Shown here piece after piece: positions 1 through 54,047 of a stretch of DNA of 64,000 nucleotides. Under the pieces are notes generated by a model, which was given only the letters and a program-made list of their open reading frames with translations, was not told where the DNA came from and ran no database searches. The stretch covers positions 18,788 through 82,787 of the forward strand of contig JAFQNF010000046.1 in the NCBI GenBank assembly GCA_017396025.1, given 5' to 3'. Within the stretch, counting starts at the first letter, position 1, and each line of letters begins with the position of its first letter. A program made the position numbers and the translations under genes. The stretch comes from a bacterium. GTDB lineage: Bacteria; Cyanobacteriota; Vampirovibrionia; Gastranaerophilales; Gastranaerophilaceae.

Positions 1-1908
1 TGGAAGATTTGGATTTTCTGCAGAATACAAGTCGAATCTTGAAACGCCAAGTTCTTCAGATACACTTGCTTTTTTCGCAATGTATGGAGATGTTAAAATA
101 CCCAATAAATTTGTTGCAACAGGCAATGTTTCTAATGGAACATCCATTGCTTGTTTTAAAATGTAATCTTCTGTTGAATAATCATTTCCAAAGTAGCTTT
201 GAGGATTAATATCAGAGCGCATATCCGCATCATCTAATAACCTAGAATGATAATTTCCATCTAATACATTTTTAACAACTTCTACATCAACAACATCAAG
301 AGTTGAAGCAGGCAAACTACCATCTGAAACTAATTTTCTAATATGGCTCATTGCACTATTTGCATTAGATAAGTTTGCATCAGGACCAAAAAGTTTTGAA
401 GCATATGATAATTGTGTATCAGTTGCCAATTTTGTCCAATATTTACCAGAATTGATAGCATAGTCTCTAACAGCTAAAGCACCTCTATCAAAGTTTTCAA
501 TTGCTTGTTCTTTTTGATAGTCTGGCAAATTAGAGAATCTTTCATCATCTTTATCCGCTCTATAGAAGTTCAATTTAGCAATATCAACGTTACCATCCCA
601 AACTTCTAAACCACCTGCAGCACTCTTATTTACTACATTAAAATATGTAAAGTCAGTTGCAGCTTTAATGTTATCAATTTTAGATAAATCAACTGTTCCA
701 CCATTTCTTTTAGCTAATCTGTTGATATTTCTTGATAATTCTGCAGGATTAACTTCAACTGGGAATGGATAAACTGCATCATCATGACGAGTTATATCAT
801 AAATATTATCTGTATTTTTATTTGCATATGTTGTCATATCCATTGGTTTATCAGACGCTTTTTGTTCTGGTGATGCTAATCTGTCATCATAGAATTGAAC
901 ATATGTCGGTTTCTTTGAATCATAGTTTGGATTTTTTGGAGAATATGTTCCATCAGAATCAATACTAAATGGAGCGTTAATTATCTTCATTCTTGTATAA
1001 TCACACTTATCAGGAAGAATACCCAATGAAACTTTTTCACCAGCTCTAAACATATCTTTTGAAATAGACTCTGGACCTCTTCTTAAGAATTCAGATAAAT
1101 GGATACCACCAAAACCTTCATTAACTAAAGCAGCATCTGAAATCCAGTTAATACCATGTTTAAATAATTCTTCTTGTAGTATTTTAAATTCTTCTTCTGT
1201 ACCCAAATTTGGAGCTACTCTATAAGCATTTTCCGTCCAATATAAGTGAGAAGAAATAGTATCTTTTGTAAAAGGTGTACCAACTATTCTTTTAACACCT
1301 TCTTTTTCTAGTTCTGGTAATCTTTGAATAATACCAAAGAAATTACCACCTAATTTATTAGCATGGTTTCTAACACTTGTAAGTGCTTTTGCACGTAAAC
1401 CTTCATTAATTGATGGTTTTCCATCAACATTTTCAACACCAGGATAGTACTCATCTGGCATGATTAACTGCATAGCACCATTTTTATTAATAGTTGCACG
1501 ATTATTCAATACAACATTATATTTATCATCTTCTTTATCACTAAAAATACCAATTACAGTACCATTATCAAAAGCATAAGTTGGTTGTGCTTTTTTATCA
1601 TTTTTATCAGTTAGTTTAAATCTATATGCAAATCCAATATCAGAAGTAATAGCTGTTTGAGAATCAATATCTACAGTTACATTACCGTCTTTTCCAAGTG
1701 GGAACGTTAATACTGGTTTTTCACCTTTTAATCCCAAATCACCTTTTTTATTTTTTGAAATATTATAAAGCTCAACTTCACAATTATACTTATCTGCATC
1801 GTATAAATAGAAGAACTTATGGACTGGATATCCTTGTTTATCAAGCTTTTTGCTATGTCCTTTAAATGCTAAATTTTGTGCGGTAATATTGCTTTTTTGA
1901 ATATTCAC
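1..1908 (-). CDS. Alpha-amylase-family (GH13)-like protein; the C-terminal part runs off the window start
   Basis: Open minus-strand frame from GTG at 1908 (AAGGAG 6 nt upstream) to position 1 with no stop. It is absent from the ORF track because there is no stop in the window. My translation: VNIQKSNITAQNLAFKGHSKK...GGNFFGIIQRLPELEKEGVKRIVGTPF...YWTENAYRVAPNLGTEEEFKILQEELFKHGINWISDAALVNEG. This follows the GH13 beta1-beta3 layout, but region I is NE instead of NH. Confidence 0.5.
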   Translation of the reverse strand, partial: MNIQKSNITAQNLAFKGHSKKLDKQGYPVHKFFYLYDADKYNCEVELYNISKNKKGDLGLKGEKPVLTFPLGKDGNVTVDIDSQTAITSDIGFAYRFKLTDKNDKKAQPTYAFDNGTVIGIFSDKEDDKYNVVLNNRATINKNGAMQLIMPDEYYPGVENVDGKPSINEGLRAKALTSVRNHANKLGGNFFGIIQRLPELEKEGVKRIVGTPFTKDTISSHLYWTENAYRVAPNLGTEEEFKILQEELFKHGINWISDAALVNEGFGGIHLSEFLRRGPESISKDMFRAGEKVSLGILPDKCDYTRMKIINAPFSIDSDGTYSPKNPNYDSKKPTYVQFYDDRLASPEQKASDKPMDMTTYANKNTDNIYDITRHDDAVYPFPVEVNPAELSRNINRLAKRNGGTVDLSKIDNIKAATDFTYFNVVNKSAAGGLEVWDGNVDIAKLNFYRADKDDERFSNLPDYQKEQAIENFDRGALAVRDYAINSGKYWTKLATDTQLSYASKLFGPDANLSNANSAMSHIRKLVSDGSLPASTLDVVDVEVVKNVLDGNYHSRLLDDADMRSDINPQSYFGNDYSTEDYILKQAMDVPLETLPVATNLLGILTSPYIAKKASVSEELGVSRFDLYSAENPNLP

Positions 1909-2101
1909 TTCTAACTCCTTTGCATGCAGAAATCCATATTGTCTTAATTCTTCTGAACCTATTTTCTTGCTTTATTATATCCTACCTTTTAACAAAAATT
2001 TACATAAAAAAGCTGTAAATATTTGTTAAAAAAAAATTTTAAAATTTTTAAAAAGTGACAAATCCGAATTTCTTTGTATATTATTCCTATGGGGAGTACT
2101 T

Positions 2102-2386
2102 ATGCTTAATATTATAAATACCCAAATACCCAATAATGATAACATTATTGCGGCAAGAAAAATTTCATCTTCAACAAACAGAAGAGCTGTAATTCTTGAT
2201 GCTCCACAATATGTCCCAGAATATTCAATAACAAAAAGGATGGAAGAGCAAGACTTGTTTAGAAATACAGCAATTCAAGCAAGCATTATAAAAACAGAAA
2301 ATAAAAATACAAGAAAAAGGGTTCTTAAAGGATTATTATTGACTGCTAGCGCAATAATTGGAATTATTTTATGTAAAAAATCTTAA
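2102..2386 (+). CDS. Small hypothetical protein with a C-terminal transmembrane anchor
   Basis: 94 aa ORF with GGGGAG upstream of the ATG. Hydrophobic tail LLLTASAIIGIILC followed by KKS. N-terminus MLNIINTQI resembles the leader seen on other proteins in this window. Confidence 0.4.
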   Translation: MLNIINTQIPNNDNIIAARKISSSTNRRAVILDAPQYVPEYSITKRMEEQDLFRNTAIQASIIKTENKNTRKRVLKGLLLTASAIIGIILCKKS

Positions 2387-2458: not shown

Positions 2459-3946
2459 ATGTCAATAAATATCTCTCAAAAATTCCCTATATACAAACAA
2501 CAAGTAAATGTAGAAAGAAAAAGTCTTTCTACTAGTTTGTCTTGTGTAAACAAAGACACATTTGTTCCATCTTTTGGGTTCAAAACGAAGAGAGAAAATT
2601 ATGGACTTTTGCATTCAATAAGAAACATGTTTAATGTAGAACACACCCCAGAAATAAATCCAACTGTCGAAGAGATATTAAATAGTAATTCATCACCATA
2701 TGCAGTTGAACTTTCAAAAGGCGTAAAAGCCCGTTTTGGAGAGAATATACCAGCAAAAAATTTCGAATGCATCATGTCTCCAGATGAATTCAGGAAAAGG
2801 CTACCTGAATTGAATGAAAAAAACTTTAAAGGTACAACTGAAAACATCGTAAATGGCTTCTATTGTGCAGATTTAGATTATGCAAGTAATTTTTCAAATG
2901 GAAAAGGAAGCATTTACGACATTTTAGAAGACGTTCTAGAGTATGCAAACCAATATAAAACCAACAATCCTGATGGAGAAAAATTTATTTTTGCACTTAC
3001 CGATAGAGACTCTCTTGAAGGAATTCAACGCATAATCAAAATAGTTGGAGAAAATCCAGAAAAATTCAAAAATGTACAGATACTTCCTGCCGTAAAACTT
3101 TCATTTACGCATGAAGCGCCAGAATCCAATATTGGATTTGAGAATAGTGAAATGTTAGTTTATGGAATAAATCCATTTTCACCAGATTTAACTAAATTTA
3201 TCGAAAAATTAAGTAGCAAAAGAAAAGCAATGGTATTAGATTTCATAAGAGAAATTAATAGATTATATCCAGAATTTTCTTATAATATCTTAGATTTCGC
3301 AGAACAAAATAGCTTAAAATACCTAAAAGATTACACTACAGTATCAAACTTATACTGGAGAGCAAGAGAATATGCTGAGTCAAAAGGTGATACAGTAATC
3401 AGAGGGAAGAAACTAGTTCCTGAAAAAATAAAAAAAGATGCAGATGGAATCATACAAGAATTAGACAGAATTTATAGAGGTTCTGATGAAAGAAGTATAC
3501 CAAGGTACTCATCTAGTTTGATTGATGAAAATTCAGACTTAAACAGAGATATCAGAACTGTATTTAGCACTTTTTCAACTCATGAAGAGAAAGAAGATGG
3601 AAAAGTAACTTCTTCTGCAGAAAGTTTGTATGATGAAATGGTTGATTGTTTATCAAAAACAGAAGGAACAAAACCTATTATGGCGATATCTTCTCCATTT
3701 TATTTATCTCACTATTTTGAAAAAAGGAATACAAAAACATACGACAACGTTGTAAAATTCATAGAAAAACTTCAAAAAGAATCAAACGGAATGCTAGTTG
3801 CTTTTGAGTCTTTTTCTCCAAACTATAGAAAAGACCAATACATAGATATGGATGAAGTTGAAAGATTTAATGACTATATGAGAAAGAAAACCGGTTTGTA
3901 TGAAGTAGGTGGCGACTTCGATCACGCATTAAACGGTTCTACTTAG
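2459..3946 (+). CDS. Hypothetical protein with a degenerate PHP-like domain
   Basis: Track ORF is 2420-3946; I prefer the internal Met (MSINISQKF) at 2459. Segment ADLDYASNFSNGKGS...FALTDRDSLEG...LPAVKLSF...MLVYGINPF mirrors the PHP layout (DLH.H...SDG / iaiTDHd / GvEis / hilgyg), but the metal-binding His residues are replaced. N-terminal DTFVPSFGFK motif. Confidence 0.45.
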   Translation: MSINISQKFPIYKQQVNVERKSLSTSLSCVNKDTFVPSFGFKTKRENYGLLHSIRNMFNVEHTPEINPTVEEILNSNSSPYAVELSKGVKARFGENIPAKNFECIMSPDEFRKRLPELNEKNFKGTTENIVNGFYCADLDYASNFSNGKGSIYDILEDVLEYANQYKTNNPDGEKFIFALTDRDSLEGIQRIIKIVGENPEKFKNVQILPAVKLSFTHEAPESNIGFENSEMLVYGINPFSPDLTKFIEKLSSKRKAMVLDFIREINRLYPEFSYNILDFAEQNSLKYLKDYTTVSNLYWRAREYAESKGDTVIRGKKLVPEKIKKDADGIIQELDRIYRGSDERSIPRYSSSLIDENSDLNRDIRTVFSTFSTHEEKEDGKVTSSAESLYDEMVDCLSKTEGTKPIMAISSPFYLSHYFEKRNTKTYDNVVKFIEKLQKESNGMLVAFESFSPNYRKDQYIDMDEVERFNDYMRKKTGLYEVGGDFDHALNGST

Positions 3947-6402: not shown

Positions 6403-7464
6403 TTGGCAATTATTTCAGATGATGACAATATAAAAAATGTAAAACCGCAAAAAAGTGAAGACACAACAGCGGAAGAAACTTCTTATGATATGTCATTTGA
6501 AGCGAATATCAGACCAAAACACTTTGACGATTATGTTGGTCAAGGTGCATTAAAATCTACTCTAAAAATTTCAATTGAAGCAGCGAAGAAACGTGAAATT
6601 CCATTAGACCACATTCTATTTTATGGGCCACCAGGCTTAGGGAAAACAACTCTAGCGTCTGTTATTGCAACAGAGATGGGAGCGAATATAAAAATCACTT
6701 CCGCTCCATCATTAGAGCGTCCTCGTGATATTATCGGAATTTTAATGGCATTAAAAGCTGGTGATGTTTTATTTATTGATGAAATTCATCGTTTAAACAA
6801 AATTTCAGAAGAAATTCTATATCCTGCAATGGAAGATTTTTATCTTGATATGACAACAGGAAAATCTCAAACATTAAAATCTATTAGAATACCAATCCCA
6901 AAATTCACCTTGATTGGTGCAACGACAAAGGCAGGTTCTTTATCTAGTCCATTGCGTGACCGTTTTGGAATTATCCATAGACTTGAATTTTATACAGAGG
7001 AAGAACTTACAAAAGTTATTCAAAGAACTGCCAATATTTTAGATATTGGAATAAAAGAAGAAGGTGCAAAAGCTATCGCAAAGCGCTCTCGTGGTACACC
7101 AAGAATTGCAAACAGATTAGTTAAAAGAGTTCGTGATTACGCTATTGTAAAATCAGATGGAATGATAGACGAAAAAACAGCAAACGAAGCTTTAGATATT
7201 CTGCAAATAGATAAATACGGCTTAGATAATACTGACCGTTCTTTATTAAATATCATTGCAAACAAATATAGTGGTGGTCCTGTTGGCATTGAAACTTTAG
7301 CAACAGCACTAGGAGAAGACGTTAAAACAATAGAAGATGTTTATGAACCATATTTAGTTCAACAAGGTTTTATCCAACGAACACCAAGAGGAAGAAAACT
7401 AACACCATATGCTTGTAATTGTTTTGATTTAAAAGATATCGATATTCAACAATCTTTATTTTGA
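6403..7464 (+). CDS. ruvB: Holliday junction branch migration ATPase RuvB
   Basis: TTG start. Walker [28 protein letters not shown] and the C-terminal EPYL.Q.GF..RTPRGR motif are all characteristic of RuvB. Confidence 0.95.
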
Positions 7465-8232
7465 TAGCATATTAACAATTTCTTCGTGATGATTTTTTAG
7501 CGCAATATCTAAAGGATAAAGCCCCTCAAAATTAGTAAGTTTTTTATCAACTTTTCTAGTTGATAAAAGATACTCAACAACTTTTGCCCTGCCATTTTTT
7601 GAGGCAATAAACAATGGTGTTTCTTGAAGTTCATTTTGAGAATTAATATCAGCACCATTCGCAACAAGAACTTTTACAGTTTCTAAATTTCCAAAAGAAG
7701 AAGCATAATGAAGTGCAGTATTTCCAAGTAAATTTCTCAAATTAGGTTCGGCACCAACAAAAAGTAAATACATAACAATATCATATCTATTTACAAAAAC
7801 AGCTTGAATTAATGGAGAATCACCTTTTTGATTAACAGTATTAGGATTTGCACCTTTAGAAACTAAAAAATGAACTAAATCAAAATTTCCATGATATGCA
7901 GCATAATTAAGTGCTGCATCACCAACATCTGTTTTTATATTAGGATCAGCACCAGCTATATTAACAAGTTCTTCCGCATAATAATTATTACCAGTAATAG
8001 CCGCAGCAATTAAAGGAGTAACACCTCTTTTATTTTGTTCATTTACACTTATTGTTGAATGTAAGAAATAGCGAAATGCTTGGTCATTAGATTTCATAAC
8101 AGCATCTATAAATGCCTTTATGTTGTATCTATAACCTATTCTTTTTAATTCATCTTTATAATTATTTCCAGCAGCCTGAACCATAGCTGTTGAAAGGAAT
8201 ACAAAAAGAATAAATAACGCTATTTTTTTCAC
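7456..8232 (-). CDS. Exported ankyrin-repeat protein
   Basis: Signal-like N-terminus ([17 protein letters not shown]). About 6 ankyrin repeats (G.TPL..A......iv..Ll..GA.pn pattern, e.g. [28 protein letters not shown]). Confidence 0.85.
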
Positions 8233-8474: not shown

Positions 8475-10580
8475 ATGAAAAAGATTTTAGTTTTTGCTAT
8501 GGCTGTTATGGCTATGTTTAGCGCTGTTCCTGCATATGCAGTTGAAGAAGAAGTTACACTTGATAATTCTGAAGAATCTTTGACAAATTCGCTTCTACTA
8601 TTTGGAGATGTAGAAGAGAAAGAGTTATATTCTTACAGTAATTACGCAGAATCAATTGAATCTGCAGGTGCAAGTGTTGATATTATTACAAGAAAAGATA
8701 TCGCTAAACAAGGAACACCACAGTTATCTGATTTATTAAACCAATCAGGTAGCTTGTTTGTACAAAACGGAAATGGTTCAGATGGTTCAGTCTCGTCAAT
8801 TAGAATGCGTGGCACAGATAGAGTCCGCATGACAATTGATGGAGTTAGAGCCGATAGAACCTCAACAACCAGCCCTGGGGTAGAACCTCAGTTTATTTTG
8901 GCTGATGACTTAGAAAGAATCGAAGTAATAAGAGGACCTCAAGGAAATGTAGCGGGAACTAACGCTTCTGGAGGTCTGATTGCTCTTCAAACAAGACGTG
9001 GACGTGGCCCATTATCTATTGAAATGGGTAGCGAAATGGGTAACTTAGGAACAGTAAAAGAAAGATTTGCTGTTATGGGCGGTGACCATTCGTTAGATTA
9101 CTATATGGGAGTAACTTGGTTTAAAACCGATGGTGGTATGAAAGTTACAAACATGGGTAAAGTTAAAAATGATGACTACAACAATTTAAGCGTTGTAGCA
9201 AACGTTGGTAAACGAGTACTTGATGAGAAAGCAGAAGTTCGTAATATTTTTAGATTTGCAAGAGCAAGAAAAAATATTGGTATTGGTTACCAACAAGCTG
9301 CTCCTTATGGTTTGTACCAAGCACCTAATAACTATGCATTAAATTATGACATTATGAATGTTACATCTTTTACTCATAATCCAACAGATAAATATAATTA
9401 TGATGCAAAATTTAGCATTTATCATAACGAAAACAATAGTTATATAATGCCTGATGATTTAAGCGGTGACCCTAAGTATGAATCAATTTCTAAAATCAAT
9501 TCAACAAGGTTAAATGCACAAACTCAACACAATTATAAAATTACAGACTGGAATACATTCAGCGCCGGTTATAATTTAGAAACAGAATTCATTGATGGAA
9601 ACACAAAAGATGTTGGTATGTGGAGCGGAACAGTTCTAAATGGATACTCTGGAAACACAATCCAAAATGATATTTTTGTTAATGATTCTATTAACATTAA
9701 AGACAAATTATTTATTCGTGGTGGTGCTAGGTTAATACACAATTCCGATTTTGGAACATATGTTACACCAAACGCATCTGCAGCATTAGTACTTCCTACT
9801 TTCAAACTTGCTGGTGCTAAAACTAAGTTTAGAGGTTCTTGGGGACAAAGTGTAAATAACCCAACTCTATACCAAAGATTTGGTACAGTTAATTCTGCTT
9901 ATATGAAATCTTTAGCAAATCCAAACCTAGATGCAGAAAAAATGGAAAGCTGGGATGTTGGTGTTACACAAAGCTTCTTTGAAGACAAATTATCTTTTGA
10001 TTTAGGATACTTCAATAGTAACTATAAAGATTACATCGGTCACCACGGATCAACAGACCCTGTGACTTGGATGTACACTGGTAAATATGTAAATATTGAT
10101 AGTGCAAAAATTCAAGGTACAGAAGCAAAAATCACTTGGGAACCAAAACCTTGGATTAAAGCAATTGCAAGTTATACATTTACTGATTCAGAAGATAAAT
10201 CAACAGGTCATTCACTTGCTGGCGTCCCAAAAAATTCATTAAAAGGAACAATTTATTGGACACCAAATGACATAGTGAACTTGTTTGCTGGTGTTGAAGC
10301 AAATGAAGGTCGTTATATGTCTGCAGCAACAAATGCAGAAAAAACTGGAAGCTATGTTGATGTAAAACTTGGCGGTAAAGTTAGATTAATAAAAACAGAA
10401 AACACAGAAATTGCACTAACAGGTACTGTTTATAACTTGTTAGACCAAGATATTTCAATGTATAAAGGAAGCGATGGGGTTTCATACTACGCTCCTGGAA
10501 TTCATTTCCGTGCTGGTTTAGCAATGAAATATACGCTTCCAGAAAGAGATAAAAAGAAAAAAGAAACAGAAAATCTGTGA
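8475..10580 (+). CDS. TonB-dependent outer membrane receptor (BtuB-like by context)
   Basis: I prefer the ATG at 8475 (GAGG about 8 nt upstream); the track gives GTG at 8466. Signal peptide ends AVPAYA. Plug-domain motifs (DIITRKDIAKQG, IRMRG, IEVIRGPQG). Long beta-barrel ending in an aromatic-rich segment. Confidence 0.9.
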   Translation: MKKILVFAMAVMAMFSAVPAYAVEEEVTLDNSEESLTNSLLLFGDVEEKELYSYSNYAESIESAGASVDIITRKDIAKQGTPQLSDLLNQSGSLFVQNGNGSDGSVSSIRMRGTDRVRMTIDGVRADRTSTTSPGVEPQFILADDLERIEVIRGPQGNVAGTNASGGLIALQTRRGRGPLSIEMGSEMGNLGTVKERFAVMGGDHSLDYYMGVTWFKTDGGMKVTNMGKVKNDDYNNLSVVANVGKRVLDEKAEVRNIFRFARARKNIGIGYQQAAPYGLYQAPNNYALNYDIMNVTSFTHNPTDKYNYDAKFSIYHNENNSYIMPDDLSGDPKYESISKINSTRLNAQTQHNYKITDWNTFSAGYNLETEFIDGNTKDVGMWSGTVLNGYSGNTIQNDIFVNDSINIKDKLFIRGGARLIHNSDFGTYVTPNASAALVLPTFKLAGAKTKFRGSWGQSVNNPTLYQRFGTVNSAYMKSLANPNLDAEKMESWDVGVTQSFFEDKLSFDLGYFNSNYKDYIGHHGSTDPVTWMYTGKYVNIDSAKIQGTEAKITWEPKPWIKAIASYTFTDSEDKSTGHSLAGVPKNSLKGTIYWTPNDIVNLFAGVEANEGRYMSAATNAEKTGSYVDVKLGGKVRLIKTENTEIALTGTVYNLLDQDISMYKGSDGVSYYAPGIHFRAGLAMKYTLPERDKKKKETENL

Positions 10581-10592
10581 TATAGTTAACTT

Positions 10593-11576
10593 ATGACTAA
10601 AACAAAAAAAATCACAACAATCTTTATTCTACTTGTTATATTATTAATTTCTTTGTACCTTGCAATGTACGCAGGGTACAAAGATTTTGGTTATAATATG
10701 CTATATAAAGCCTTTAATTTGGGCGAAGATACAGATAGTATGATTTTAACCGTACTTCGATATCCAAGAGCATTAAAAGCGTTTATAGCTGGTGGTTGTT
10801 TAGCTTTAGCTGGGATGTTTATGCAATCTGTATCTAAAAACCCATTAGCAGAACCTTATATCACAGGTATTTCTGCAGGCGCAGGTCTTGGAATTGTTCT
10901 ATCAATCCTGTTATTTAACAGTTCAAACTATTCAATTTTTGGATTTATTGGTGCATTAATTTCATCTGCACTAGTTATTATATTCTCTGGTTTAAGCAGA
11001 TTTTCAATAACTAAACTAATCTTAATTGGTTTATCAATGAATATATTTGTAAGTTCCTTAATTTCACTAATAATTCTAGTAAACCCATTAAAATCTTATA
11101 TGATGATGTTAATTTTATCTGGCGGAGTTACAAATAACGAAATAATTTCTAATAAAATGCTTGTTATTGTATTTTGTTTGTTAATGATTGCAAGTGCGAT
11201 TTTCATACCAAAACTAAACTATTTAAGATTAGATAGCGAACTGCTTGAAACAAATAAAAATAAAAAATATTTATACACAGTTATTGTAATTATAATTGCA
11301 TCATTTTTAACATCTTTAAGCGTATTTGCAGCAGGCATTTTAGGTTTTGTTGGTATTATCGCACCACAAATTTCAAGAATGCTTTTAGGACAAGATTATA
11401 GATGGTTATTCATTGCAAACACTCTAATCGGTGGAAGCTTGATTTTATTAGCAGACTATATAGCAAGAACAGTAATCTATCCACTTCAAGTTCCATTAGG
11501 TTTAGTTGTAGCATTTATTGGCGCACCTGTGTTTGTGTTCTTTTTAACTAGAAAAGGAGATATGTTCCGTGATTAA
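10593..11576 (+). CDS. ABC importer permease, FecCD/BtuC family
   Basis: 327 aa, multi-pass, with typical FecCD features (RYPRALKAFIAGG.LALAG..MQ, GIIAPQISRML, PLGLVVAFIGAPVFVFFL). Confidence 0.9.
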   Translation: MTKTKKITTIFILLVILLISLYLAMYAGYKDFGYNMLYKAFNLGEDTDSMILTVLRYPRALKAFIAGGCLALAGMFMQSVSKNPLAEPYITGISAGAGLGIVLSILLFNSSNYSIFGFIGALISSALVIIFSGLSRFSITKLILIGLSMNIFVSSLISLIILVNPLKSYMMMLILSGGVTNNEIISNKMLVIVFCLLMIASAIFIPKLNYLRLDSELLETNKNKKYLYTVIVIIIASFLTSLSVFAAGILGFVGIIAPQISRMLLGQDYRWLFIANTLIGGSLILLADYIARTVIYPLQVPLGLVVAFIGAPVFVFFLTRKGDMFRD

Positions 11577-12291
11577 CATTAAGAATTTATCTCTAAAAGT
11601 TGATAAGCTTACAATTTTTGAAAATGCTGATATAAATATTCCAAAAGATAAAATAACAGTCCTAGTTGGACCAAATGGCGTTGGAAAAACTACACTTTTA
11701 AAAATAATTTCTGGAATTATAAAACCTCAAACAGGTTCTATAGAAAAAAACTGCAAAGAACTATTTTATTTACCTCAAAGGATAAAATATCCTTCTGGAA
11801 TAACTCTTCAAGAATATATTGAATCATCATTTTACAAGCAAAATTGGAAATGGTTTTTATCAAAAGAAGAAAAACAAAAAATTGATGAAACACTAGAACT
11901 TTTAGAACTTACTGATAGAAAAAATACACTAATAGATAACCTAAGTTCAGGTGAACTTCAAAAAGCGAATATTGCACTAGGGCTAGTATCTAATGCCGAT
12001 GTATTTTTACTTGATGAACCAACATCCAACATGGATTTAATAAATCAAATAAAAGTTTTAGATATCATCAAAAAGCTTACAACAAAAGGTATTTCTTGTT
12101 TGATAGTGTTGCACGACATCAACCTATCAGCTAGTTATGGTGACTATTTTATCGGACTTACAAAACAAAATAGAATAATCTGTGAAGAAAAAAATAAATT
12201 TTTCACACCAGAAACACTTAATGCAATTTTTGGAATTAATTTTAAGGTAATAAACAGCGATGAAGATTTCCATATACAAATATTTAATTAG
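11569..12291 (+). CDS. ABC importer ATP-binding protein (BtuD/FecE-like)
   Basis: Walker A GPNGVGKTT, signature LSSGELQ, Walker B VFLLDEPT, H-loop LHD. The start overlaps the permease stop. Confidence 0.9.
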   Translation: MINIKNLSLKVDKLTIFENADINIPKDKITVLVGPNGVGKTTLLKIISGIIKPQTGSIEKNCKELFYLPQRIKYPSGITLQEYIESSFYKQNWKWFLSKEEKQKIDETLELLELTDRKNTLIDNLSSGELQKANIALGLVSNADVFLLDEPTSNMDLINQIKVLDIIKKLTTKGISCLIVLHDINLSASYGDYFIGLTKQNRIICEEKNKFFTPETLNAIFGINFKVINSDEDFHIQIFN

Positions 12292-39474: not shown

Positions 39475-40108
39475 AATCCCTCAAATCAGATAAATGAGAT
39501 ACTTCTAAATCATCAAATTTGGTATTTATATGTTTTACAAGTAAGCCCAAAATAAATACCGCAATAAATAAATCAAGAAGTACGCCAAGATTAACTATCA
39601 TTGGCATTTCTTTTGCAACGGATAAAGAAAGCAAGAAAATACCATTTTCCATTGTAATAAAATCAATTACATTGGAAACAACTTTATGTTTTACAGTAAT
39701 TAAAATCAAACTAATTATAATTACAGCAATTGAAACACCAAAATACAATGGATTAATCATCTTCATTGCTGGCATGTTAATACTTGAAACTAAAAAACCA
39801 GCAAAAAGAATTACAGTCGCAATAAATAAGCTATAAAAGTGATGAATATTCGCTTCTGTATCTCTATATTCTTTTGTACGTTTAATCAATCCACCTAAAA
39901 AAGTTGGTATAATAACAGATTTAATTAGTAATGTTTCAAATGCAATGAACAATAAATTGAATACAGAAAACTCATTCATTCCCAAAACACAAATCAAAAA
40001 CAATAATATACCTTGCAAAACAAGAACATTTACATGAGCAGCCAATCTACTTGTAGCTGCAACATATAACATTGTAAAACCAAATAATATTATAAATGCA
40101 TTTTCCAT
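39458..40108 (-). CDS. HyfE-like small membrane subunit (NuoK-related)
   Basis: 216 aa, about 7 TM helices, positioned as in hyf operons. Assignment rests on size and context. Confidence 0.65.
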   Translation of the reverse strand: MENAFIILFGFTMLYVAATSRLAAHVNVLVLQGILLFLICVLGMNEFSVFNLLFIAFETLLIKSVIIPTFLGGLIKRTKEYRDTEANIHHFYSLFIATVILFAGFLVSSINMPAMKMINPLYFGVSIAVIIISLILITVKHKVVSNVIDFITMENGIFLLSLSVAKEMPMIVNLGVLLDLFIAVFILGLLVKHINTKFDDLEVSHLSDLRDCEYDD

Positions 40109-40111
40109 AGT

Positions 40112-43089: not shown

Positions 43090-43746
43090 TCAAAAAATAA
43101 AAACACATATTACAGTTGTTAATATTCCAATTACAATCAATGCTAAAGTAGCCAAAACAACTTGTTTTGGGCGTTTCTTCTCAATGCAAGTTGACGTACC
43201 AAGAACATGGCTTGTAGAACCAATTGCAAGTCCCGTTGCAATATCACTTTTTATCTTAAAAACTTTTAAGATTTTATGACTAAACACTGCACCATAAATA
43301 CCAGTCAAACAAACAAAACAAGCTGTAAGTTCGGGAATACCACCAATTGCCTTTGATATTTCTATAGCAATTGGCGTTGTTACAGTCTTAGGCATTAATG
43401 ATGTTATAAGCTGCCAATCTACATGAAAAATTTTTCCCAAAACTATTGTTGTAATAATAGCTGTAACTACGGAAATAACGAACCCAAAATAAATTGCTCT
43501 CTTATTTTTTAGTAAAATTTTAGCGTTATCAGATAGTGGAAGTGCAAGTGCAATAGTTGCTGGGCCAAGCAATAAAGTTAAGAAACAAGCAGATTCATTA
43601 TATGAATTATAATCAATTTTAAATGTACATAAAATAACAATCAAAATTATACTTGTCATCATCATTGCTGGAATTTTAATACACTTAATTCTTTTTACAA
43701 CTTCAAAAATTAAGATAGTTAAAATAAGTCCCCAAACGTTAATCAT
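43090..43746 (-). CDS. lrgB: LrgB-like membrane protein
   Basis: 218 aa, multi-pass. PKTVTTPIAIEIS and GSTSHVLGTS are typical of LrgB/CidB. It overlaps the upstream lrgA-like gene. Confidence 0.8.
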   Translation of the reverse strand: MINVWGLILTILIFEVVKRIKCIKIPAMMMTSIILIVILCTFKIDYNSYNESACFLTLLLGPATIALALPLSDNAKILLKNKRAIYFGFVISVVTAIITTIVLGKIFHVDWQLITSLMPKTVTTPIAIEISKAIGGIPELTACFVCLTGIYGAVFSHKILKVFKIKSDIATGLAIGSTSHVLGTSTCIEKKRPKQVVLATLALIVIGILTTVICVFIF

Positions 43747-44131
43747 TTTTCAATTTCCTCATTTTTTGGAGCCTTACAAATTTTATAACATTTTCTACAA
43801 AGATTGCTGTTAAAAGTAAAGTAAGAGTCGTTGTAACAACAACATTAATTAATATTGGAATTAAATTTTTTTCAATAACACCATAATATGTAATAATACC
43901 AACAGCTAAAGGAACAAAAAGTAATGGCATATATTTAAGAATACAGTCGCAAATATCCTTAATCCACTCACGTTTAAGGAAATTCAATTGCAATAACAAA
44001 AACATAACAATAATACCCAATATCGGTGCAGGAAATGGAATATTTGAAAATTTCACAAATAAATTACACATAAACTGAATTGTGCAAAGTATAACAAAAC
44101 CTATTAAACATCTTAAAACTCGGCTAATCAT
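43739..44131 (-). CDS. lrgA: LrgA/CidA holin-like protein
   Basis: 130 aa, 4 TM helices, immediately upstream of lrgB and overlapping it. Confidence 0.7.
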   Translation of the reverse strand: MISRVLRCLIGFVILCTIQFMCNLFVKFSNIPFPAPILGIIVMFLLLQLNFLKREWIKDICDCILKYMPLLFVPLAVGIITYYGVIEKNLIPILINVVVTTTLTLLLTAIFVENVIKFVRLQKMRKLKND

Positions 44132-44902: not shown

Positions 44903-45994
44903 TCAGTCAAACATTAAACTGTACAATCTAGGTGTAAAATTATCTTTATATTTCATACATAGAGGATTTCTTAAAACCTTTTTTAAATCTTCATGCAAAG
45001 GATGATCTGGTTCAACAATAAAGTCATTATCTAAAGCAGTATAATTATATTGAACCTGCCGCAATTCCCAAAAAAATGGACGAGCACCAAAATGTTCTGC
45101 CATTCCTATAAAATCTGGTATTTCTTTGTAATTGACTGCAGATACAACAAAATGAAGAAAAAACATAAAACTATGTTTTTCTCGAGCCAAAGACAAAAAT
45201 TTAAGATTTTCCAAAATAACAGGAAAAAATTTCTCGCCATTTTGAACTATTTTCGAATAAGTTTCTGCAGTTGCAGCATGAATAGAAACCCTTATTGCAT
45301 ATATACGATCAAGTGAAATTTTTAACTGTTTCAACATATTCTCAGTACAAAGAATACCATTTGTTTGGAAATCAAATTTTATATGCTTATACTTTTTTGC
45401 AACTTTTTCTGCTAGTAAACGACTATGTCTTGAAGCAAAAGGATCACCTTTTACATTAACCTCTAATACTTGAACATCATTAAGAAGTGGTATAAGCAAA
45501 GAATCTATTCTAGAATTAAACAATTGTAATTCTTCATCAGAAAGACAAATAATTTTATCTCTACACATTTTACAAGCGATGTTACATTCAGAATCATATC
45601 CAAGCTTAACAGAAACTGGACTTTTTTTCATATGAATTTGAAAAGAGGGATGATCTTTCTTCCAAAAAGATTTTTTTAAAGTTCTTTTTGAAAGAGGAAA
45701 CAACTGCCTTTTACAATATGGACAAGAATTCTTATCACATAAAGAATAATCTTTATTTAAAATTCTTTTCCTAAGTTCCTTTACACGTTCCGGATTCCAA
45801 ATTTCTTCATAATTATCAGAAAATATGTTTCCAATCGAATAAAAATTATTCCAATTAGGGCAACAACAATATACATCACCATTTGAACCAACTTCAAAAG
45901 TTTCAAATGGCAACGTACAAATATGTTCAAAACGTTCTTTATTTTCTGAAAAATTGCTATTCAAGCTCATCTGTTTCTTCAGCCCCAGCTTCAT
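44903..45994 (-). CDS. Radical SAM enzyme with an N-terminal SPASM/twitch-like Cys module (paralog 3 of 3)
   Basis: ICTLPFETFEVGSNGDVYCCCPNW...SIGNIF...EIWNP...SLCDKNSCPYC, then CNIACKMC, KGDPF, TNGIL and IRVSIHAAT. The start may be the internal Met at 45970. It overlaps the nusA stop region. Confidence 0.75.
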   Translation of the reverse strand: MKLGLKKQMSLNSNFSENKERFEHICTLPFETFEVGSNGDVYCCCPNWNNFYSIGNIFSDNYEEIWNPERVKELRKRILNKDYSLCDKNSCPYCKRQLFPLSKRTLKKSFWKKDHPSFQIHMKKSPVSVKLGYDSECNIACKMCRDKIICLSDEELQLFNSRIDSLLIPLLNDVQVLEVNVKGDPFASRHSRLLAEKVAKKYKHIKFDFQTNGILCTENMLKQLKISLDRIYAIRVSIHAATAETYSKIVQNGEKFFPVILENLKFLSLAREKHSFMFFLHFVVSAVNYKEIPDFIGMAEHFGARPFFWELRQVQYNYTALDNDFIVEPDHPLHEDLKKVLRNPLCMKYKDNFTPRLYSLMFD

Positions 45995-47883: not shown

Positions 47884-48225
47884 TTAATTATACAATTCTT
47901 TTTCTCTTGGTTTTCCAGCTTTTTGTTTACCTTTTTGTGAATAATCAAATTTAGAAAGAGCTTTTTTAATATATTCATCTATTTTTTCTTTTGGTAAATT
48001 CTCAGCATCAAATTTTTGATATTGTTTATAGCCAATACCTTTTAAATCTTTCTCAAATTTATCATCTAATTCATTCGGCAATGATACTCTAGCTGCACCC
48101 GTTTTAGAAGAACTAATCAAACCACCATATTGTTGAGTTAATGTTCTTAATTTATCTTTCTTTGCATTATTAACTCCAGGTTGAGTTATTGGCACTCTAT
48201 ATGTAGATGAAAAACTTACGTTCAT
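47884..48225 (-). CDS. Hypothetical basic protein
   Basis: I prefer the start MNVSFSSTY at 48225 (AAGGGA upstream). 113 aa, K-rich. Confidence 0.45.
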   Translation of the reverse strand: MNVSFSSTYRVPITQPGVNNAKKDKLRTLTQQYGGLISSSKTGAARVSLPNELDDKFEKDLKGIGYKQYQKFDAENLPKEKIDEYIKKALSKFDYSQKGKQKAGKPREKELYN

Positions 48226-49124: not shown

Positions 49125-52100
49125 CTTTTTCTTTCAGCAAACTGAACAAAAGAACCAAACTCCCTTAACTGTTCAAACGACAATTTAACTTTAACACACC
49201 CCCAAGGATCAAAAACGTTATAACTTAATATATTTCCTTGTTTATCAGTTTCAGCAGGAGTGATAGGATATGCATGATTTTCATGTATACCTAGTGTTTC
49301 ATAATTATTATTTCTCAAGCCTTCTTTTGTGGTCCACACTACAATATACTTATCAAAAGTTTTTGGATTTGTTACATTCTCTTGAGTTTTTTTATCCGCA
49401 ATATGTTCCCAAAACGAATTTTGATATCCTATTCTTTGATAGAACTTTATAGTATCACCACCATTGCGGCCTTGGGTTTCGGCAGTATTATAGCCATCTA
49501 TTGTTTCTTTGAACACATAACATTCCCATTCATCAGTTTTATCATTTCTTCTAACAACAAGATTTTCAATACCTAATTCTATTAATTTTTGTATTTCCTG
49601 TAATTTTTCTTGTGCAATTTTCTTTTCATCATCAGTCTGACCACTGGCAAGTTCTTTCAATAAATATAAGAAATAATTTTTTATACGATAAGCTTGTAAT
49701 TCTTTTCCATCAGCATATTCTAATAATTTAAACCCCTTTGCTCCTTTTGAATAATTTTTAGCCAACTCAGAAGAGGGAAGATTTCCATTTTCAAATCTTA
49801 TTTCTTCATATTCCCCTTTTGGAAACTTTATTAAAATATCATCACCATCTTGATAAAACATTTTTAAGATATTTACACGTTCATTTGCATCTCTAAAAAT
49901 AGAATTCATGCCCGCCATTTGCCAACAATTACCAATTTGACCCTGAGTTGTTGCATATCTTTCTACTGGCGGAAATAAATCAAAATAGGTTTGTTTTGAA
50001 ATATTTAACTGAGTTGAAGTATTTTTACCAGTAACAATACGAATATATTCTTCATCTTCCAATTCAAAAACATCACCGACTTTTAATTGTTTCAATGCAT
50101 CATTTTCCTTTACAAAAGTAGGGATAAAAGCATCAATTGGCTCTGTTCCATTTATATATGCTTCATACAGTAAATCAATATCAGAAACAACAAGAGAGTT
50201 TAACTCAACCTGCGTTGGCAAATAATCAAATACATGCTTATCAACAACTCCATTTAAAACCAAATCAAGTAACATTTGCATATTACTCGCATTAACAGAC
50301 GCTGGATTAATATTTAACATATATTTAAATGCTTCTAATTGGCAAATTTCTTGCTGTTTTTGAGGAAAAACAGGTTCCCCATTTACATCTCTTAATTCTT
50401 GAAAATATGACAAAGCGTCCATTCTTTGAATAGAATCGTATCTATCCGCAGCAAAACAAGAAACAAAATCTAAAATTTCAAACAACTCATATCGCGTATA
50501 AAAATCTATTCTAGATTTAATATCAGTTACGAAATCTAAAACACTATTCGGATCAAATTCTTTAGAGTAAAAAATATCTGAAAAGTTTTTTTCTGCCAAA
50601 AATTTTTCTAAGAAAGTGCTATCGTTGTATCTTTGCTTATTATCAAATAAAAAAACAAAATCACTCCAAGATTCTGGATCAAAATCTTTTTCAGCAACAA
50701 AAGAAAAGTCATTTAATTGAGATAATAATGTTTCACCATTTGCATAAGTCGTACCTAACAAATTTAGGAAACTTGCCATGTTTTTTATATAATCAAAATT
50801 TATATTTTCAAATTCCCCTGTTTTTGTGAGTAATCTAGCAAAATAAGTTCCTTTTTTATCAACAGAGTTAATATGTTTTATAACTTGATTATCCAACATT
50901 CTTAAAAACTTTAGTGCATCCATATGAACTTCTGTTTCAGAAAATCCAGCATCTTTTACTAACGAAGGAGACAGTGATTTTTTTCTCAATGTTCCATTTA
51001 AAGTTATTTGACGGCCCTTAAATGACACTGTTTGTTTTCCAGTCAAATTATTTTTTTTAGCAATATCAACAATTCCGCCAATTTCTTTTATTTGTTCATA
51101 ACTAATAGGAATTTCTATTATGCTATGAGGATCTATAAGTTTAAATTTTGAGACTCGTCCATTTTCATCCACATCTAATGGATACATTCGGTAAGAATGG
51201 TCAACAAGCAAACCTTCTGGCGCTTTTTCCTGAGGGAAACCTCTTGGTATGCCATAAGTCACAACATTATTTTCAAAATTTCCCGCATAAGATATAAAGT
51301 CATTTCTCGCCATTTCATCCTTGTTATAAACCTCTATAGGATATAAAAGACGCATAAATAACTCTGAAGAATTGCCACCATCTCTACTCACTGTTGATCC
51401 ACTATCAAAGCCGTGCTTTTCTTTTTTCCATTCTTCAAAAGTCCAGTCTTGTTTTTCATCCAGAGAGACAACAACACTATCCCAATTTTCTTCAAGTAAA
51501 TCTATTAATCTTGATGCTTTTTCATCAATAAGTCTTTTCTCATTTTCTGTTTTTGCAGAATCATAAGCCTGTCTATATTGAAGCATTAAAAATCTAATTT
51601 TATCGGCATGAGATTCTTTCCCGTCCGCAAACTCCAAAAGTCTAATACCCTTTGCACCACGAGAGAAATATCGTTTATCTGATTTTGGAGGCAAATTCCC
51701 ATTTTTAAAAATATGTTTCGTATAATTTCCATTAGGGAATCGAATTACAACATCATTACCTTCTTGAGAAAATAGCCCAAGTATTTTTTCTCTTTCTTGT
51801 GGGTCAGCAAACAAAGCATTTAAAGCAGTTAACTCCCAACAATTACCAACATCTCCTTGCGTAGATGCATACCTTTCAATTGGAGGAAAAAGGTCAAAAT
51901 ATGTTTTTTTATCTAGTCCAAGCTGTGTTGATAAACCGTATCTATTTACGATGAAAATTTTATCTTCACCATCCAGTTCATAAACATCACCCATTTTTAG
52001 ATTATTTTGTGCATCTCGTTTTGTTTTATAAGTAGGAACAAAGGCATCAATTGGTTTTACACTCGTTGAATAAGCAACATACAATTTATCAATATCATCT

Positions 52101-52888
52101 AAAACCAAAGAATTTATTTTTCCTTTTACGGGAATGTTATTAAATACATGAATACCAACAACGCCATCTTGAACTAGTTCTAAAAGCATCTCAAGATTGC
52201 TTGTATCTACACTTCCCTTATCAACACTTAAGACATATTTTAGTGCATTAATTTGATTCTTACCCATTCCTCCATTACGTTCAGCAAGAACACTTTGTCC
52301 ATCTTTAGTCATTAGAGAACGAAAATAGAATAAATCATGAACAAATTCTTCTACAGGTTCTTTTGACTTTGCAGCTTCAATCATAAAATCAAGTTGCGCT
52401 TTTATAGGGAATTTACTTATTTCTTCATCATCTCGGTTATAATATTCATCCAAAAATTCAATAGCTTTATTAGGTTTAAAATCTTTTTCATTGAATAATT
52501 CAGAAATTGGTTTTACTGAATTTAAAAGTTCTAAAAAAGATTTTTCATAAACTGTTGTTTCATTTTCAAATAAAGCAGTAGCACTATCCATCTCTGAAAG
52601 GAAATTTGTCCAAGCCGGAATATCAAACCCCTTATCAAAAGCAAAAGTATAACCATTTAATCTACTAGCTAATGATTCGTTTTCAATCTTAATTGTCTTT
52701 AAAAAGTCAAAAAATTTCTTCATTTCAGGAGACATTCTATCCACTAATGAAGGAGGTGCATACTTAGCACGAATGTTTTCACTGCTATATTGAGAATATG
52801 GCACAATAACATTTGGAGTATTTTTATTACTCACTTTCTTATTCTTAAAAGATATAACTTTCTCTGTATTACTAATCGCGTGTATTTG
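49115..52888 (-). CDS. Internally duplicated calpain-like (C2-type) cysteine protease
   Basis: I prefer the start MQIHAISN at 52888; the track starts at 52927. There are two collinear modules of about 630 aa. Each has TQG.(V/I)GNCW (Cys at track aa 363 and aa 1001), (D/N)H(S/A)Y (His577 and His1218) and DP(H/W)(S/G) (Asp599 and Asp1240). Each module begins with a [V/I]SFK motif. Confidence 0.7.
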   Translation of the reverse strand, partial: QIHAISNTEKVISFKNKKVSNKNTPNVIVPYSQYSSENIRAKYAPPSLVDRMSPEMKKFFDFLKTIKIENESLASRLNGYTFAFDKGFDIPAWTNFLSEMDSATALFENETTVYEKSFLELLNSVKPISELFNEKDFKPNKAIEFLDEYYNRDDEEISKFPIKAQLDFMIEAAKSKEPVEEFVHDLFYFRSLMTKDGQSVLAERNGGMGKNQINALKYVLSVDKGSVDTSNLEMLLELVQDGVVGIHVFNNIPVKGKINSLVLDDIDKLYVAYSTSVKPIDAFVPTYKTKRDAQNNLKMGDVYELDGEDKIFIVNRYGLSTQLGLDKKTYFDLFPPIERYASTQGDVGNCWELTALNALFADPQEREKILGLFSQEGNDVVIRFPNGNYTKHIFKNGNLPPKSDKRYFSRGAKGIRLLEFADGKESHADKIRFLMLQYRQAYDSAKTENEKRLIDEKASRLIDLLEENWDSVVVSLDEKQDWTFEEWKKEKHGFDSGSTVSRDGGNSSELFMRLLYPIEVYNKDEMARNDFISYAGNFENNVVTYGIPRGFPQEKAPEGLLVDHSYRMYPLDVDENGRVSKFKLIDPHSIIEIPISYEQIKEIGGIVDIAKKNNLTGKQTVSFKGRQITLNGTLRKKSLSPSLVKDAGFSETEVHMDALKFLRMLDNQVIKHINSVDKKGTYFARLLTKTGEFENINFDYIKNMASFLNLLGTTYANGETLLSQLNDFSFVAEKDFDPESWSDFVFLFDNKQRYNDSTFLEKFLAEKNFSDIFYSKEFDPNSVLDFVTDIKSRIDFYTRYELFEILDFVSCFAADRYDSIQRMDALSYFQELRDVNGEPVFPQKQQEICQLEAFKYMLNINPASVNASNMQMLLDLVLNGVVDKHVFDYLPTQVELNSLVVSDIDLLYEAYINGTEPIDAFIPTFVKENDALKQLKVGDVFELEDEEYIRIVTGKNTSTQLNISKQTYFDLFPPVERYATTQGQIGNCWQMAGMNSIFRDANERVNILKMFYQDGDDILIKFPKGEYEEIRFENGNLPSSELAKNYSKGAKGFKLLEYADGKELQAYRIKNYFLYLLKELASGQTDDEKKIAQEKLQEIQKLIELGIENLVVRRNDKTDEWECYVFKETIDGYNTAETQGRNGGDTIKFYQRIGYQNSFWEHIADKKTQENVTNPKTFDKYIVVWTTKEGLRNNNYETLGIHENHAYPITPAETDKQGNILSYNVFDPWGCVKVKLSFEQLREFGSFVQFAERKSYK

Positions 52889-53018
52889 CATATAAGACCT
52901 TACGCAAATACAATAACCAAACAGCATTTTTTTTGCGCGAAATAATATTCAAATTAAAAGACGGTAACATTTTTTGAAGACTTAGCAATTTTAGATATTT
53001 TTGAACCTTATATAGAAT

Positions 53019-54047
53019 ATGAACATTGGCAAAAGTAGTTCAAATATAACAAGTCAAATTGTAAAAAAAGGTGTTGATTACGCAAAATCAACATCAATTA
53101 AGCTGAGTTCAATTGCGGATGATACAGTATCTTTTACTCAAAAAGCAGCATCTGGAGCATTAACAAAACTATCAAAAGTTGCCAATTTTCGACCAACTAA
53201 TAAGGAATACAGAATTATTTCTCTACCTCAAGGCTTAGATATAATTGACGGAAAAATAGATGGAAAAACTTCTGTTCCAACAATGGCAATTATCGATGTT
53301 TTTAGCGATTTTGGGAACTATAAAATTGGAAAAAAAGTAAAATTACCTCACGGAAAAATTGTTTCAAAATTTGCCACATCTGGTCTAGATGATAAAGTTG
53401 GTGTTTTAGCCTTTGATACTACCCCAAAGGGCAAAAATGAATGGCAAGCAATGCAAGATTCATTAGAAGACCTTGTAAAAATTGTAAAAAATGGAAATGA
53501 TGTTAAAGCGTTAAACTTATCTGTAGGTGTTCCGGCAGATTTTGAAAAAATTTCAAATACAGTGGGCGAACTTATTACAGAAAAAAATGTAAGTGAATAC
53601 AAAACAAAAATATTAGAAGAATTAAAAAAATCAAAAACACAAAAAGATAAAAACACAGTCGGAATGATTAATGCAATAAACGAACTTGTTGAAAATGGAG
53701 TGGAAGTTTTTGCTGCATCTGGAAATAATCAAGGAAGAGGTATTGATTTACTTTCATTATCAAATGCACAACACATTGTTGGAGCAGATGATTATGCAAA
53801 AGCAACACAAGCATTCTCAAATTCAACATCAAAAGGCGTTCATACTTTTGAAATGCTATATGATAACGCTGGTAACTTAAAAGGATTAACCAACGGAACA
53901 ATAAGTTTTGATACAAGTGATATACCTAACCTACCAAAGAAAAATGGATTTCTAGGACAAATATTACAAGAAAAAAATGCCACCATAAAAGGTACATCTT
54001 TTTCTTGTCCAACAGCACTGAATGAATATTTAAAAAAGATTCTTTAA
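53019..54047 (+). CDS. Subtilisin-like (S8) serine protease, divergent, no signal peptide
   Basis: AIIDVFSD (Asp), LPHGKIV (His), AASGNNQG (oxyanion Asn), GTSFSCPTA (Ser). N-terminal DDTVSFTQK motif. Confidence 0.55.
   Translation: MNIGKSSSNITSQIVKKGVDYAKSTSIKLSSIADDTVSFTQKAASGALTKLSKVANFRPTNKEYRIISLPQGLDIIDGKIDGKTSVPTMAIIDVFSDFGNYKIGKKVKLPHGKIVSKFATSGLDDKVGVLAFDTTPKGKNEWQAMQDSLEDLVKIVKNGNDVKALNLSVGVPADFEKISNTVGELITEKNVSEYKTKILEELKKSKTQKDKNTVGMINAINELVENGVEVFAASGNNQGRGIDLLSLSNAQHIVGADDYAKATQAFSNSTSKGVHTFEMLYDNAGNLKGLTNGTISFDTSDIPNLPKKNGFLGQILQEKNATIKGTSFSCPTALNEYLKKIL

Follow-up and report, generated by a model that had tools for sequence, protein, structure and literature searches.

Why should an amylase-like enzyme, a calpain-like protease and an adenylate kinase (ADK) of one bacterium start with the same kind of N-terminus? 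This question is raised by a stretch of 64,000 nucleotides (positions 18,788 to 82,787 of contig JAFQNF010000046.1, assembly GCA_017396025.1, family Gastranaerophilaceae; below "the window", meaning the whole stretch analysed), in which proteins of unrelated folds carry a short N-terminal leader that ends in a phenylalanine-centred motif. Most probably the leader is a signal, so far undescribed, for the export or processing of the lineage's secreted enzymes. We favour, with a probability of roughly 0.42, a lineage-specific, portable and disordered leader of Gastranaerophilales (Melainabacteria/Vampirovibrionia) that marks about 2% of the proteome for Sec-independent export.

Nine leaders or leader-like segments are present in the window. 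Eight N-termini had been quoted in the initial annotation and all were found where it had placed them, its coordinates marking the motif itself; one further leader belongs to an RTX-like protein. The regions are the following, with coordinates in the window and strand.

1846-1908 (-): leader of the GH13-like protein, (V->M)NIQKSNITAQNLAFKGHSKK, Phe at residue 15, LAFKG at 1858-1872(-)
2459-2593 (+): leader of a 495-aa orphan initially called PHP-like, MSINISQKF...KDTFVPSFGFKTKR, PSFGF at 2567-2581(+)
14009-14104 (+): leader of a 356-aa HELRH-motif protein, MTMNISLNN...SSCSFSKL, CSFSK at 14087-14101(+)
17775-17831 (-): leader of an RTX-like beta-roll protein (gene 16911-17831(-)), MMNGINSDAVMHSFNNGNQ, with an AGGAGA Shine-Dalgarno sequence upstream
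25331-25489 (-): 55-residue N-terminal extension of the adenylate kinase, MFISKV...KADTFSFSGKVQDK, DTFSFSGK at 25370-25393(-)
48190-48225 (-): N-terminus of a 113-aa protein, MNVSFSSTYRVP
50972-51058 (-): inter-module linker of the calpain-like two-module protein, internal motif KKNNLTGKQTVSFKGRQ..., TVSFKG at 51014-51031(-)
52835-52891 (-): leader of module 1 of the calpain-like protein, MQIHAISNTEKVISFKNKK, VISFKN at 52841-52858(-)
53019-53144 (+): leader of a subtilase-like 342-aa protein, MNIGKSSSN...IADDTVSFTQK, DTVSFTQK at 53121-53144(+)

A Shine-Dalgarno-like sequence precedes six of the leader starts. The gene of the GH13-like protein crosses the edge of the window, and its full product of 1335 aa was obtained by exact-protein look-up. 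The leader of the HELRH protein scores 14.5 bits with a position-specific scoring matrix (PSSM) that was trained on the calpain family only. The 495-aa orphan is a weak member with a degenerate motif, and membership of the 113-aa protein is doubtful, its motif at residues 3-6 being a family-specific conserved N-terminus. This latter family deserves a remark of its own. Homologues of the protein (47884-48225(-)) occur in loci L001, L002, L036, L064, L069, L077, L091 and L131; they are small (about 105-113 aa) and basic, with a Lys-rich tail and the invariant N-terminus M(N)[VI][SN]F[SGTC]S[ST]YR[VIF]P, and they frequently adjoin rimP-nusA. They may be translation-related rather than cargo.

The fold labels that had been assigned to these proteins fared differently. 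Adenylate kinase is strongly supported, GH13 by a weak Pfam Alpha-amylase match and calpain weakly by Pfam; the calpain label was confirmed by structure, with a Foldseek probability of 1.0 to calpain protease cores. Sequence searches of Pfam, NCBIfam and PDB returned no fold for the proteins called PHP-like, HExxH and S8-like. The first of these labels is unsupported, the second is borne out by the presence of HELRH, and the third stands in part: Asp93, His111 and Ser327 (the latter in a GTSFSCP context) are invariant in the family, but no database match was obtained.

Is the motif more than a chance feature of such N-termini? As first written ([T/V]-x-SF-x-[G/K], preceded by 'MNI..S.N') it was too narrow and partly wrong. 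The literal pattern matches only two of the eight quoted examples, and SF.[GK] occurs in the window three times within the first 60 residues versus ten times elsewhere, a ratio of 1.3 that represents no N-terminal enrichment. The sequences are better described by M-[KNQ]-[IV]-x-x-[IVL]-[SN] at the start and [VIPL]-[SAT]-F-[KSG]-[G/S/N] further on. The statistics of the window by themselves would not establish a leader. We judge it non-random because of evidence from relatives outside the window, namely conservation in orthologues, enrichment in a sample of calpain-like proteins and recurrence.

Nine homologues of the GH13-like protein (P0001-P0009, 52-75% identical) share M[ND]I.[KN]......N.[AS]F[SKT]GH, of which the [AS]F.G core is invariant while the other leader residues vary. 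About 20 N-extended adenylate kinases (62-100% identity) all have DT[FV][ST]F[ST]GKV downstream of a variable segment; the adenylate kinases that match next best, from Corynebacterium and Clostridiales, are without the 55-residue extension. The subtilase-like family keeps [DE]D[TV]V[SC]F in ten of twelve homologues. For the calpain-like family, an exhaustive search with module 1 yielded 425 proteins, the best 149 of which were analysed (representatives at most 50% identical pairwise). Blind enumeration placed SFKG among the most enriched 4-mers within the first 80 residues of these proteins (15.7-fold; six N-termini versus three occurrences in 120,000 other positions). SF.G is found in 16 of the 149 N-termini (8.1-fold, Fisher p=2e-8) and the broader motif class in 42 (4.2-fold, p=1e-12).

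Beyond single families, the neighbourhoods of nusA and of the gene for phosphoglycerate kinase (PGK) served as quasi-random genomic samples of about 470-500 gene families each. The NusA query had returned 80 loci (78-97% identity), essentially all from gut metagenome-assembled genomes (MAGs) of Candidatus Gastranaerophilales / Melainabacteria. Taken alone, the core motif shows only 1.6-3.2-fold enrichment around PGK, which is the independent sample; around nusA the value rises to 6.3-fold when the highest PSSM threshold is applied. The core is short and degenerate, and a convincing leader is present in only about 2% of the gene families, with hot spots such as the window (8-9 of 58 open reading frames) and the syntenic island of a relative (6 of 14 genes). 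When k-mers were counted directly over the window and the loci, orthologue redundancy swamped the enrichment, and exact k-mers at the family level were underpowered. A one-site-per-sequence Gibbs sampler run on the calpain-family N-termini rose barely above shuffled controls (information content 7.5 versus 7.0) and was replaced by k-mer and regular-expression enrichment. Conservation in orthologues and enrichment in the calpain-like sample show the leader to be real and under selection.

The anatomy of the leader was derived from an alignment of 43 leaders from different families. The extreme N-terminus consists of M1, K/N/Q at position 2, Ile at position 3 (24 of 43, plus three with Val), an aliphatic residue at position 6 (21 of 43) and Ser or Asn at positions 7-9; as a whole it is rich in Ser, Asn and Thr. 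Around the phenylalanine, V/I/P/L is found at -2, Ser at -1 (31 of 40, otherwise Thr or Ala), K/S/G at +1 and Gly at +2 (17 of 40), followed by a Lys-rich stretch. The phenylalanine lies 8-69 residues from the start, with clusters at 8-31 and 47-58, just ahead of the folded domain; longer leaders of the calpain family often have an amphipathic S.E.LRA.Y stretch immediately before the motif. The leader is predicted to be intrinsically disordered: in the AlphaFold2 (AF2) model of the adenylate kinase, residues 1-44 have a predicted local distance difference test score (pLDDT) below 50, compared with more than 85 for the kinase core. It also evolves faster than the domain that it precedes, with non-synonymous changes in 25 of 50 aligned codons versus 44 of 185 in the domain.

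As had been proposed, a Sec signal is absent, with no window of 12 residues in any leader containing nine or more hydrophobic residues. Direct reading of the leaders revealed neither an RR motif nor a lipobox, the hallmarks of Tat substrates and lipoproteins. Classical signal peptides are found on several further proteins encoded in the window, which indicates that Sec is used normally and sets the leaders apart as a class of their own. The leader is covered by no model in Pfam or NCBIfam, and full-text literature searches gave no description of the motif.

The proposal that the leader behaves as a portable unit ahead of unrelated domains is supported by its cargo, which comprises GH13-like, adenylate kinase, calpain-like, subtilase-like, RTX-like, amidohydrolase and PGK proteins and many orphans. 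Outside the window, leaders on unrelated proteins include MINVDATRISFKGK (amidohydrolase), MNISSIGSNYTNINTSQSFKGL, MKINTITAFSLKNQTRNNISFKAGK (HAD-like), MSISRVNNNISFKQT and MLVNNIGKPSFKGT, again together with many orphans. The PGK of one lineage has a 70-residue extension, MSIQRIALS…YMSNISFKGINND, and its gene adjoins that of a leader-bearing adenylate kinase. PGK in about 50 other Gastranaerophilales contigs starts at MKKSIKDLGD without a leader; that the search for PGK orthologues returned leaderless proteins only is evidence of portability. The locus in question (L087) encodes the leader-PGK at 10786-12189(-) and the leader-adenylate kinase at 10001-10720(+). The canonical start of PGK is replaced there by Leu, possibly an internal TTG or CTG start; a single gene might accordingly give rise to one isoform that has the leader and one that lacks it.

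Portability within a protein is illustrated by the duplicated calpain-like protease, each module of which carries the motif, as had been noticed initially. A syntenic relative has three separate tandem genes in place of the two-module protein, each with a full leader, which makes the internal QTVSFKG a relic of gene fusion. A 39%-identical two-module homologue reads …NNGPSFKGIKE at the junction while the remaining linker has diverged, and the AF2 model shows the junction as a linker with pLDDT below 50 between two well-folded modules. Because SFKG is kept at this internal junction, the Phe motif is maintained even where a role in an N-terminal signal is impossible.

The nameable cargo is usually a hydrolase or of an extracellular type, for example the 1335-aa amylase-like protein and the calpain-like, subtilase-like and amidohydrolase proteins. 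The calpain-like family is very large, with members of up to 5,900 residues. In the RTX-like protein, GGxGxD calcium-binding repeats reach the C-terminus and leave no space for a C-terminal type I signal. Most of the remaining cargo are orphans without Pfam matches, many of them 'effector-like' and some with transmembrane segments. On the whole the cargo looks extracellular in character, with adenylate kinase and PGK as surprising members.

What could such a leader do? A targeting or secretion tag, or a propeptide site, had been suggested, and either is consistent with, though unproven by, the non-Sec N-termini, the predicted disorder, the extracellular-type cargo and the internal SFKG. We infer export, with a leader of two elements. 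The extreme N-terminus would engage an export gate, most plausibly that of the flagellar type III export apparatus. The second element, a beta-strand-like hydrophobic-[S/A/T]-F-[K/S/G]-[G/…] motif that is usually followed by basic residues, would then serve as docking site for the gate or for a multi-cargo chaperone, and/or as the site at which the leader is cut; an export signal and a processing site are mutually compatible.

Several lines of evidence lead us to favour a Sec-independent, type III-like leader: its composition, its similarity to flagellar N-termini, and the fact that two-part type III signals are established. The Ser share of the first 50 residues is 14% in the window leaders versus 7% in controls from the same genome, the type III rule being at least 10%. 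An aliphatic residue at position 3 or 4, where the rule also admits Pro, is found in 78-88% of leaders (window 88%) versus 53% of controls, Ile or Val at position 3 in 56-75% versus 23%, and no acidic residue among the first 12 in 63-75% (window 75%) versus 29%. The leaders thus conform to the type III compositional rules, which are permissive and do not amount to proof. Flagellar N-termini of the clade are similar (FlgB MNSISRT, FlgC MSIFNAM), and the start of a clade flagellin, MAIVINTNMASIKIQHDL, resembles the leader MQINTNVNSIKQNINQNL of a protein that is annotated by NCBI as Candidatus Gastranaerophilales.

Flagellar genes near the window are a further point in favour. Exact-protein look-ups that extended the contig placed FlgB, FlgC, two FlgF/G-type rod genes and an SLT gene directly to the left of the window; the organism is accordingly thought likely to be flagellated, or at minimum to have retained flagellar export genes. 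The flagellar genes found are these rod genes and the flagellins of a relative; flhA, flhB and fliPQR lie outside the sampled DNA. Partial to complete flagellar gene sets of Gastranaerophilales have been published (PMC5877343), and the export of non-flagellar proteins via flagellar type III systems is documented (PMC2764114, PMC5223770, PMC7688988). Some members of the group carry an expanded set of flagellin genes: locus L065 (273-3328(-)), from a horse-faeces Gastranaerophilales MAG, has three flagellin genes in tandem adjoining rimP-nusA.

Early flagellar type III substrates combine an N-terminal hydrophobic signal with the gate-recognition motif FxxxΦ (PMC8983047). The leaders share with them an unstructured N-terminus, small hydrophobic residues at positions 2-6, a Phe motif tens of residues downstream and the lack of a cleavable Sec peptide; the organism moreover encodes rod proteins, one of which, FlgB, reads ...KDISFSQYL at residue 40. 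The leaders differ in that the hydrophobic residue at F+4 is missing, the preference being for Gly at +2 and for basic residues, in a spacing that is often below 19 residues, in the non-flagellar cargo and in the internal occurrence of the motif. Injectisome effectors have a secretion signal (residues 1-20, approximately) and a class IB chaperone-binding motif, (LMIF)xxx(IV)xx(IV)xN, at residues 25-45 (PMC3280449). The leaders resemble these effectors in obeying the type III composition rules but lack the chaperone-binding pattern (0 of 36 leaders). We know of no injectisome or class IB chaperone in the lineage and saw none.

Other observations weigh against type III-like export, which, like the pathway itself, is a sequence-based proposal and unproven. 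A hydrophobic residue at F+4, as in the gate motif, is present in 6 of 36 leaders versus a background of 31%, and the class IB pattern, found in none of them, occurs in 4 of 347 controls. In about 40% of leaders the phenylalanine lies at residues 8-25, closer to the start than the FlgD spacing would allow; Salmonella FlgD requires 19-24 residues (PMC8983047). An N-terminal export signal gives no explanation for an SFKG that is kept about 620 residues into the fused protein, and adenylate kinase and PGK are cytoplasmic housekeeping enzymes. Rod proteins of the same genome were found to be without the SF[KS]G motif, and reading of the upstream regions revealed no common sigma-28-type promoter ahead of the leader genes. 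The sole sigma-28-like site, TAAA-N17-CCGATAT, precedes the gene of a 1056-aa protein. A likeness of the motif to the TonB box (D-T-Φ-x-V) was considered and rejected: the TonB-dependent receptor of the window has no similar box, and the proteins have no route to the periplasm.

The alternative that survives best, although we regard it as unlikely, is a cleavable pro-sequence. The hydrophobic-SF[KS]G motif would be recognised by an endopeptidase of its own (Prp-like, calpain-like or of another kind) that strips the N-extension and separates fused modules, thereby activating or maturing the proteins, with export being optional. The internal SFKG and the constant position of the motif ahead of a domain fit a cleavage site better than an export signal: SFKG is found at the junction of 39%-identical two-module proteins, within a low-confidence linker, and the motif immediately precedes the folded domain at any leader length (8-69), as in ISFKGKIIDSHTH of the amidohydrolase. 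The motif is also carried by the cytoplasmic enzymes adenylate kinase and PGK. A precedent is provided by Prp (DUF464), a cysteine protease normally encoded between rplU and rpmA, which cuts N-extensions of L27 and of phage capsid proteins after a conserved Phe. Like the leaders, the extensions processed by Prp (L27, staphylococcal phage capsid and scaffold) are short, occur on unrelated proteins and have a Phe site followed by small or basic residues, and such a protease could act at an internal as well as at a terminal site. The leaders studied here are, unlike them, up to 70 residues long, with a conserved extreme N-terminus and mostly extracellular-type cargo. The analogy to L27 and Prp that had been drawn initially is not supported by the site itself, which has only the Phe in common. 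Searches for L27 and L21 (tblastn) and for the Prp catalytic motif (regular expression) gave no match in 1.5 Mb of sampled DNA, a result that is uninformative because the L21-L27 operon lies outside the sample. A pro-sequence would, moreover, leave unexplained both the conservation of the extreme N-terminus (Ile or Val at position 3, no acidic residues) and the extracellular character of the cargo.

Rather unlikely, too, is an export leader for a machine other than type III, be it a peptidase-ABC exporter that reads a double-glycine-type variant, a contractile injection system, into which cargo would be loaded by disordered N-terminal tags, or an undescribed sorting system of Vampirovibrionia. 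Double-glycine leaders have GG, GA or GS at -2/-1 and hydrophobic residues at -4, -7 and -12, and they are removed by ABC exporters with a C39 peptidase. Similarities to the leaders described here are a non-hydrophobic N-terminal stretch of 15-60 residues, often an amphipathic helix, and a Gly before the mature part. The S.E.LRA.Y stretch followed by SFKG in the calpain family is reminiscent of such helix-plus-cleavage-site leaders, about half of the motifs end in Gly, the known type III docking motifs are lacking, and the leader is outside the Pfam and NCBIfam models. The double-glycine signature itself is absent, however: position -2 is Lys, Ser or Thr instead of Gly, Ala or Ser-Gly, the residue directly before the Gly being Lys or Ser, a conserved Phe occupies -3, and Gly is not invariant. 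Large enzymes of 600-1335 residues would also be atypical cargo for peptidase-ABC exporters. No gene for such a transporter or injection system was present in the window or the annotated loci, which represent a small part of any genome. A further proposal, somewhat doubtful in our view, is an undescribed sorting system of Gastranaerophilales, perhaps of all Vampirovibrionia, in which M-x-I…ΦSFKG leaders would be handled by dedicated machinery, neither Sec/Tat nor known type III docking, and processed at SFKG.

It is improbable that the leader is an intracellular targeting or docking peptide that acts in shell loading or scaffold binding by beta-strand addition and not in export. This idea would account for leaders on the ATP-handling adenylate kinase and PGK, whose genes are adjacent, and for the alternating T-V-S-F-K-G that is typical of strand-addition peptides; the cargo-loading peptides of encapsulins (…GSLKG) also loosely resemble the motif. 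Encapsulin peptides are usually C-terminal, though, and belong to a few dedicated cargo proteins with an HK97-fold shell gene nearby; the cargo seen here is mostly of an extracellular type (a calcium-needing beta-roll, large hydrolases, proteases) and partly has transmembrane segments, and no shell gene was seen among the annotated neighbours in the sampled DNA, in which no systematic shell search was made. The weakest view, in which the leader has no function and arises incidentally from the K/N/S/I/F-rich proteins of an AT-rich genome and from common ancestry of N-termini within families, can draw on the unenriched literal pattern, the modest enrichment of the core motif alone and the Gibbs sampler, but is essentially excluded by orthologues that keep the motif while their flanks drift, the 8-16-fold enrichment (p about 1e-8) among 149 divergent calpain-like proteins, the gain of a leader by a housekeeping PGK, the motif at an internal junction and residue preferences that differ from those of control N-termini of the same genomes.

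Sec-independent export thus remains the reading that we prefer. The leader would represent a type of N-terminal non-Sec export or processing without prior description, and an undescribed sorting system is a real possibility. Gastranaerophilales, uncultured relatives of cyanobacteria that do not photosynthesise, are widespread in the guts of humans, ruminants and rabbits, and to our knowledge almost nothing is known of their interactions with hosts and neighbours. A leader defined by sequence would allow the exported proteome to be listed from metagenomes alone, a list that would hold calpain-like cysteine proteases by the dozen, along with large amylase-like enzymes, beta-roll proteins that bind calcium and enzymes that handle nucleotides. 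If a new sorting system is indeed at work, the whole secreted or effector repertoire, including calpain-like proteases, glycosidases and exported adenylate kinase and PGK, could be defined directly from sequence, and the leader would provide a handle for finding the recognition machinery. Few export signals, whether type III-like or new, have a conserved motif that can be searched for, and this would be one of them. The PGK that gained a leader and the fused gene in which the motif persisted are natural experiments in signal portability.

Some further features of the window and its relatives may be added. A second recurrent type of N-terminus, M..Y[IV][NT]PF[EK] and/or an acidic [DE].[VS]S[IVL]F[DENS] located 25-70 residues in, is found on giant (1000-5900 aa) repeat or calpain-containing proteins, many of them among P0138-P0260. 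The window has one example, the 1056-aa beta-roll-like protein at 54048-57218(-), with DDEVSLFDSE at 57117-57146. Three paralogues in which the domain order is permuted, an N-terminal SPASM iron-sulfur domain preceding the radical SAM domain, are encoded at 17950-19017(-), 23810-24775(+) and 44903-45994(-); two of them directly adjoin leader genes (RTX-like, adenylate kinase), and locus L094 has a similar gene.

The GC content is about 30% across the window. The stretch from 24 to 32 kb is low in GC (0.26-0.29) and may be a mobile or defence island; it contains a tandem pair of zinc-ribbon paralogues (25598-26038 and 26038-26415) and, amid orphan genes, a 186-aa protein with an FtsZ/tubulin GTPase domain (26663-27223(-)). 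An ankyrin-repeat protein with at least five repeats and a classical signal peptide (7456-8232(-)), conserved in contigs of the same species, is probably a Sec-exported protein with a eukaryote-like domain. Judged by sequence alone, a cluster for a hydrogenase-4/Ech-type membrane-bound [NiFe] hydrogenase, with large subunit, 4Fe-4S subunit and several antiporter-like membrane subunits, extends over 35831-43014(-) and is followed by LrgA/LrgB-like genes at 43090-44131.

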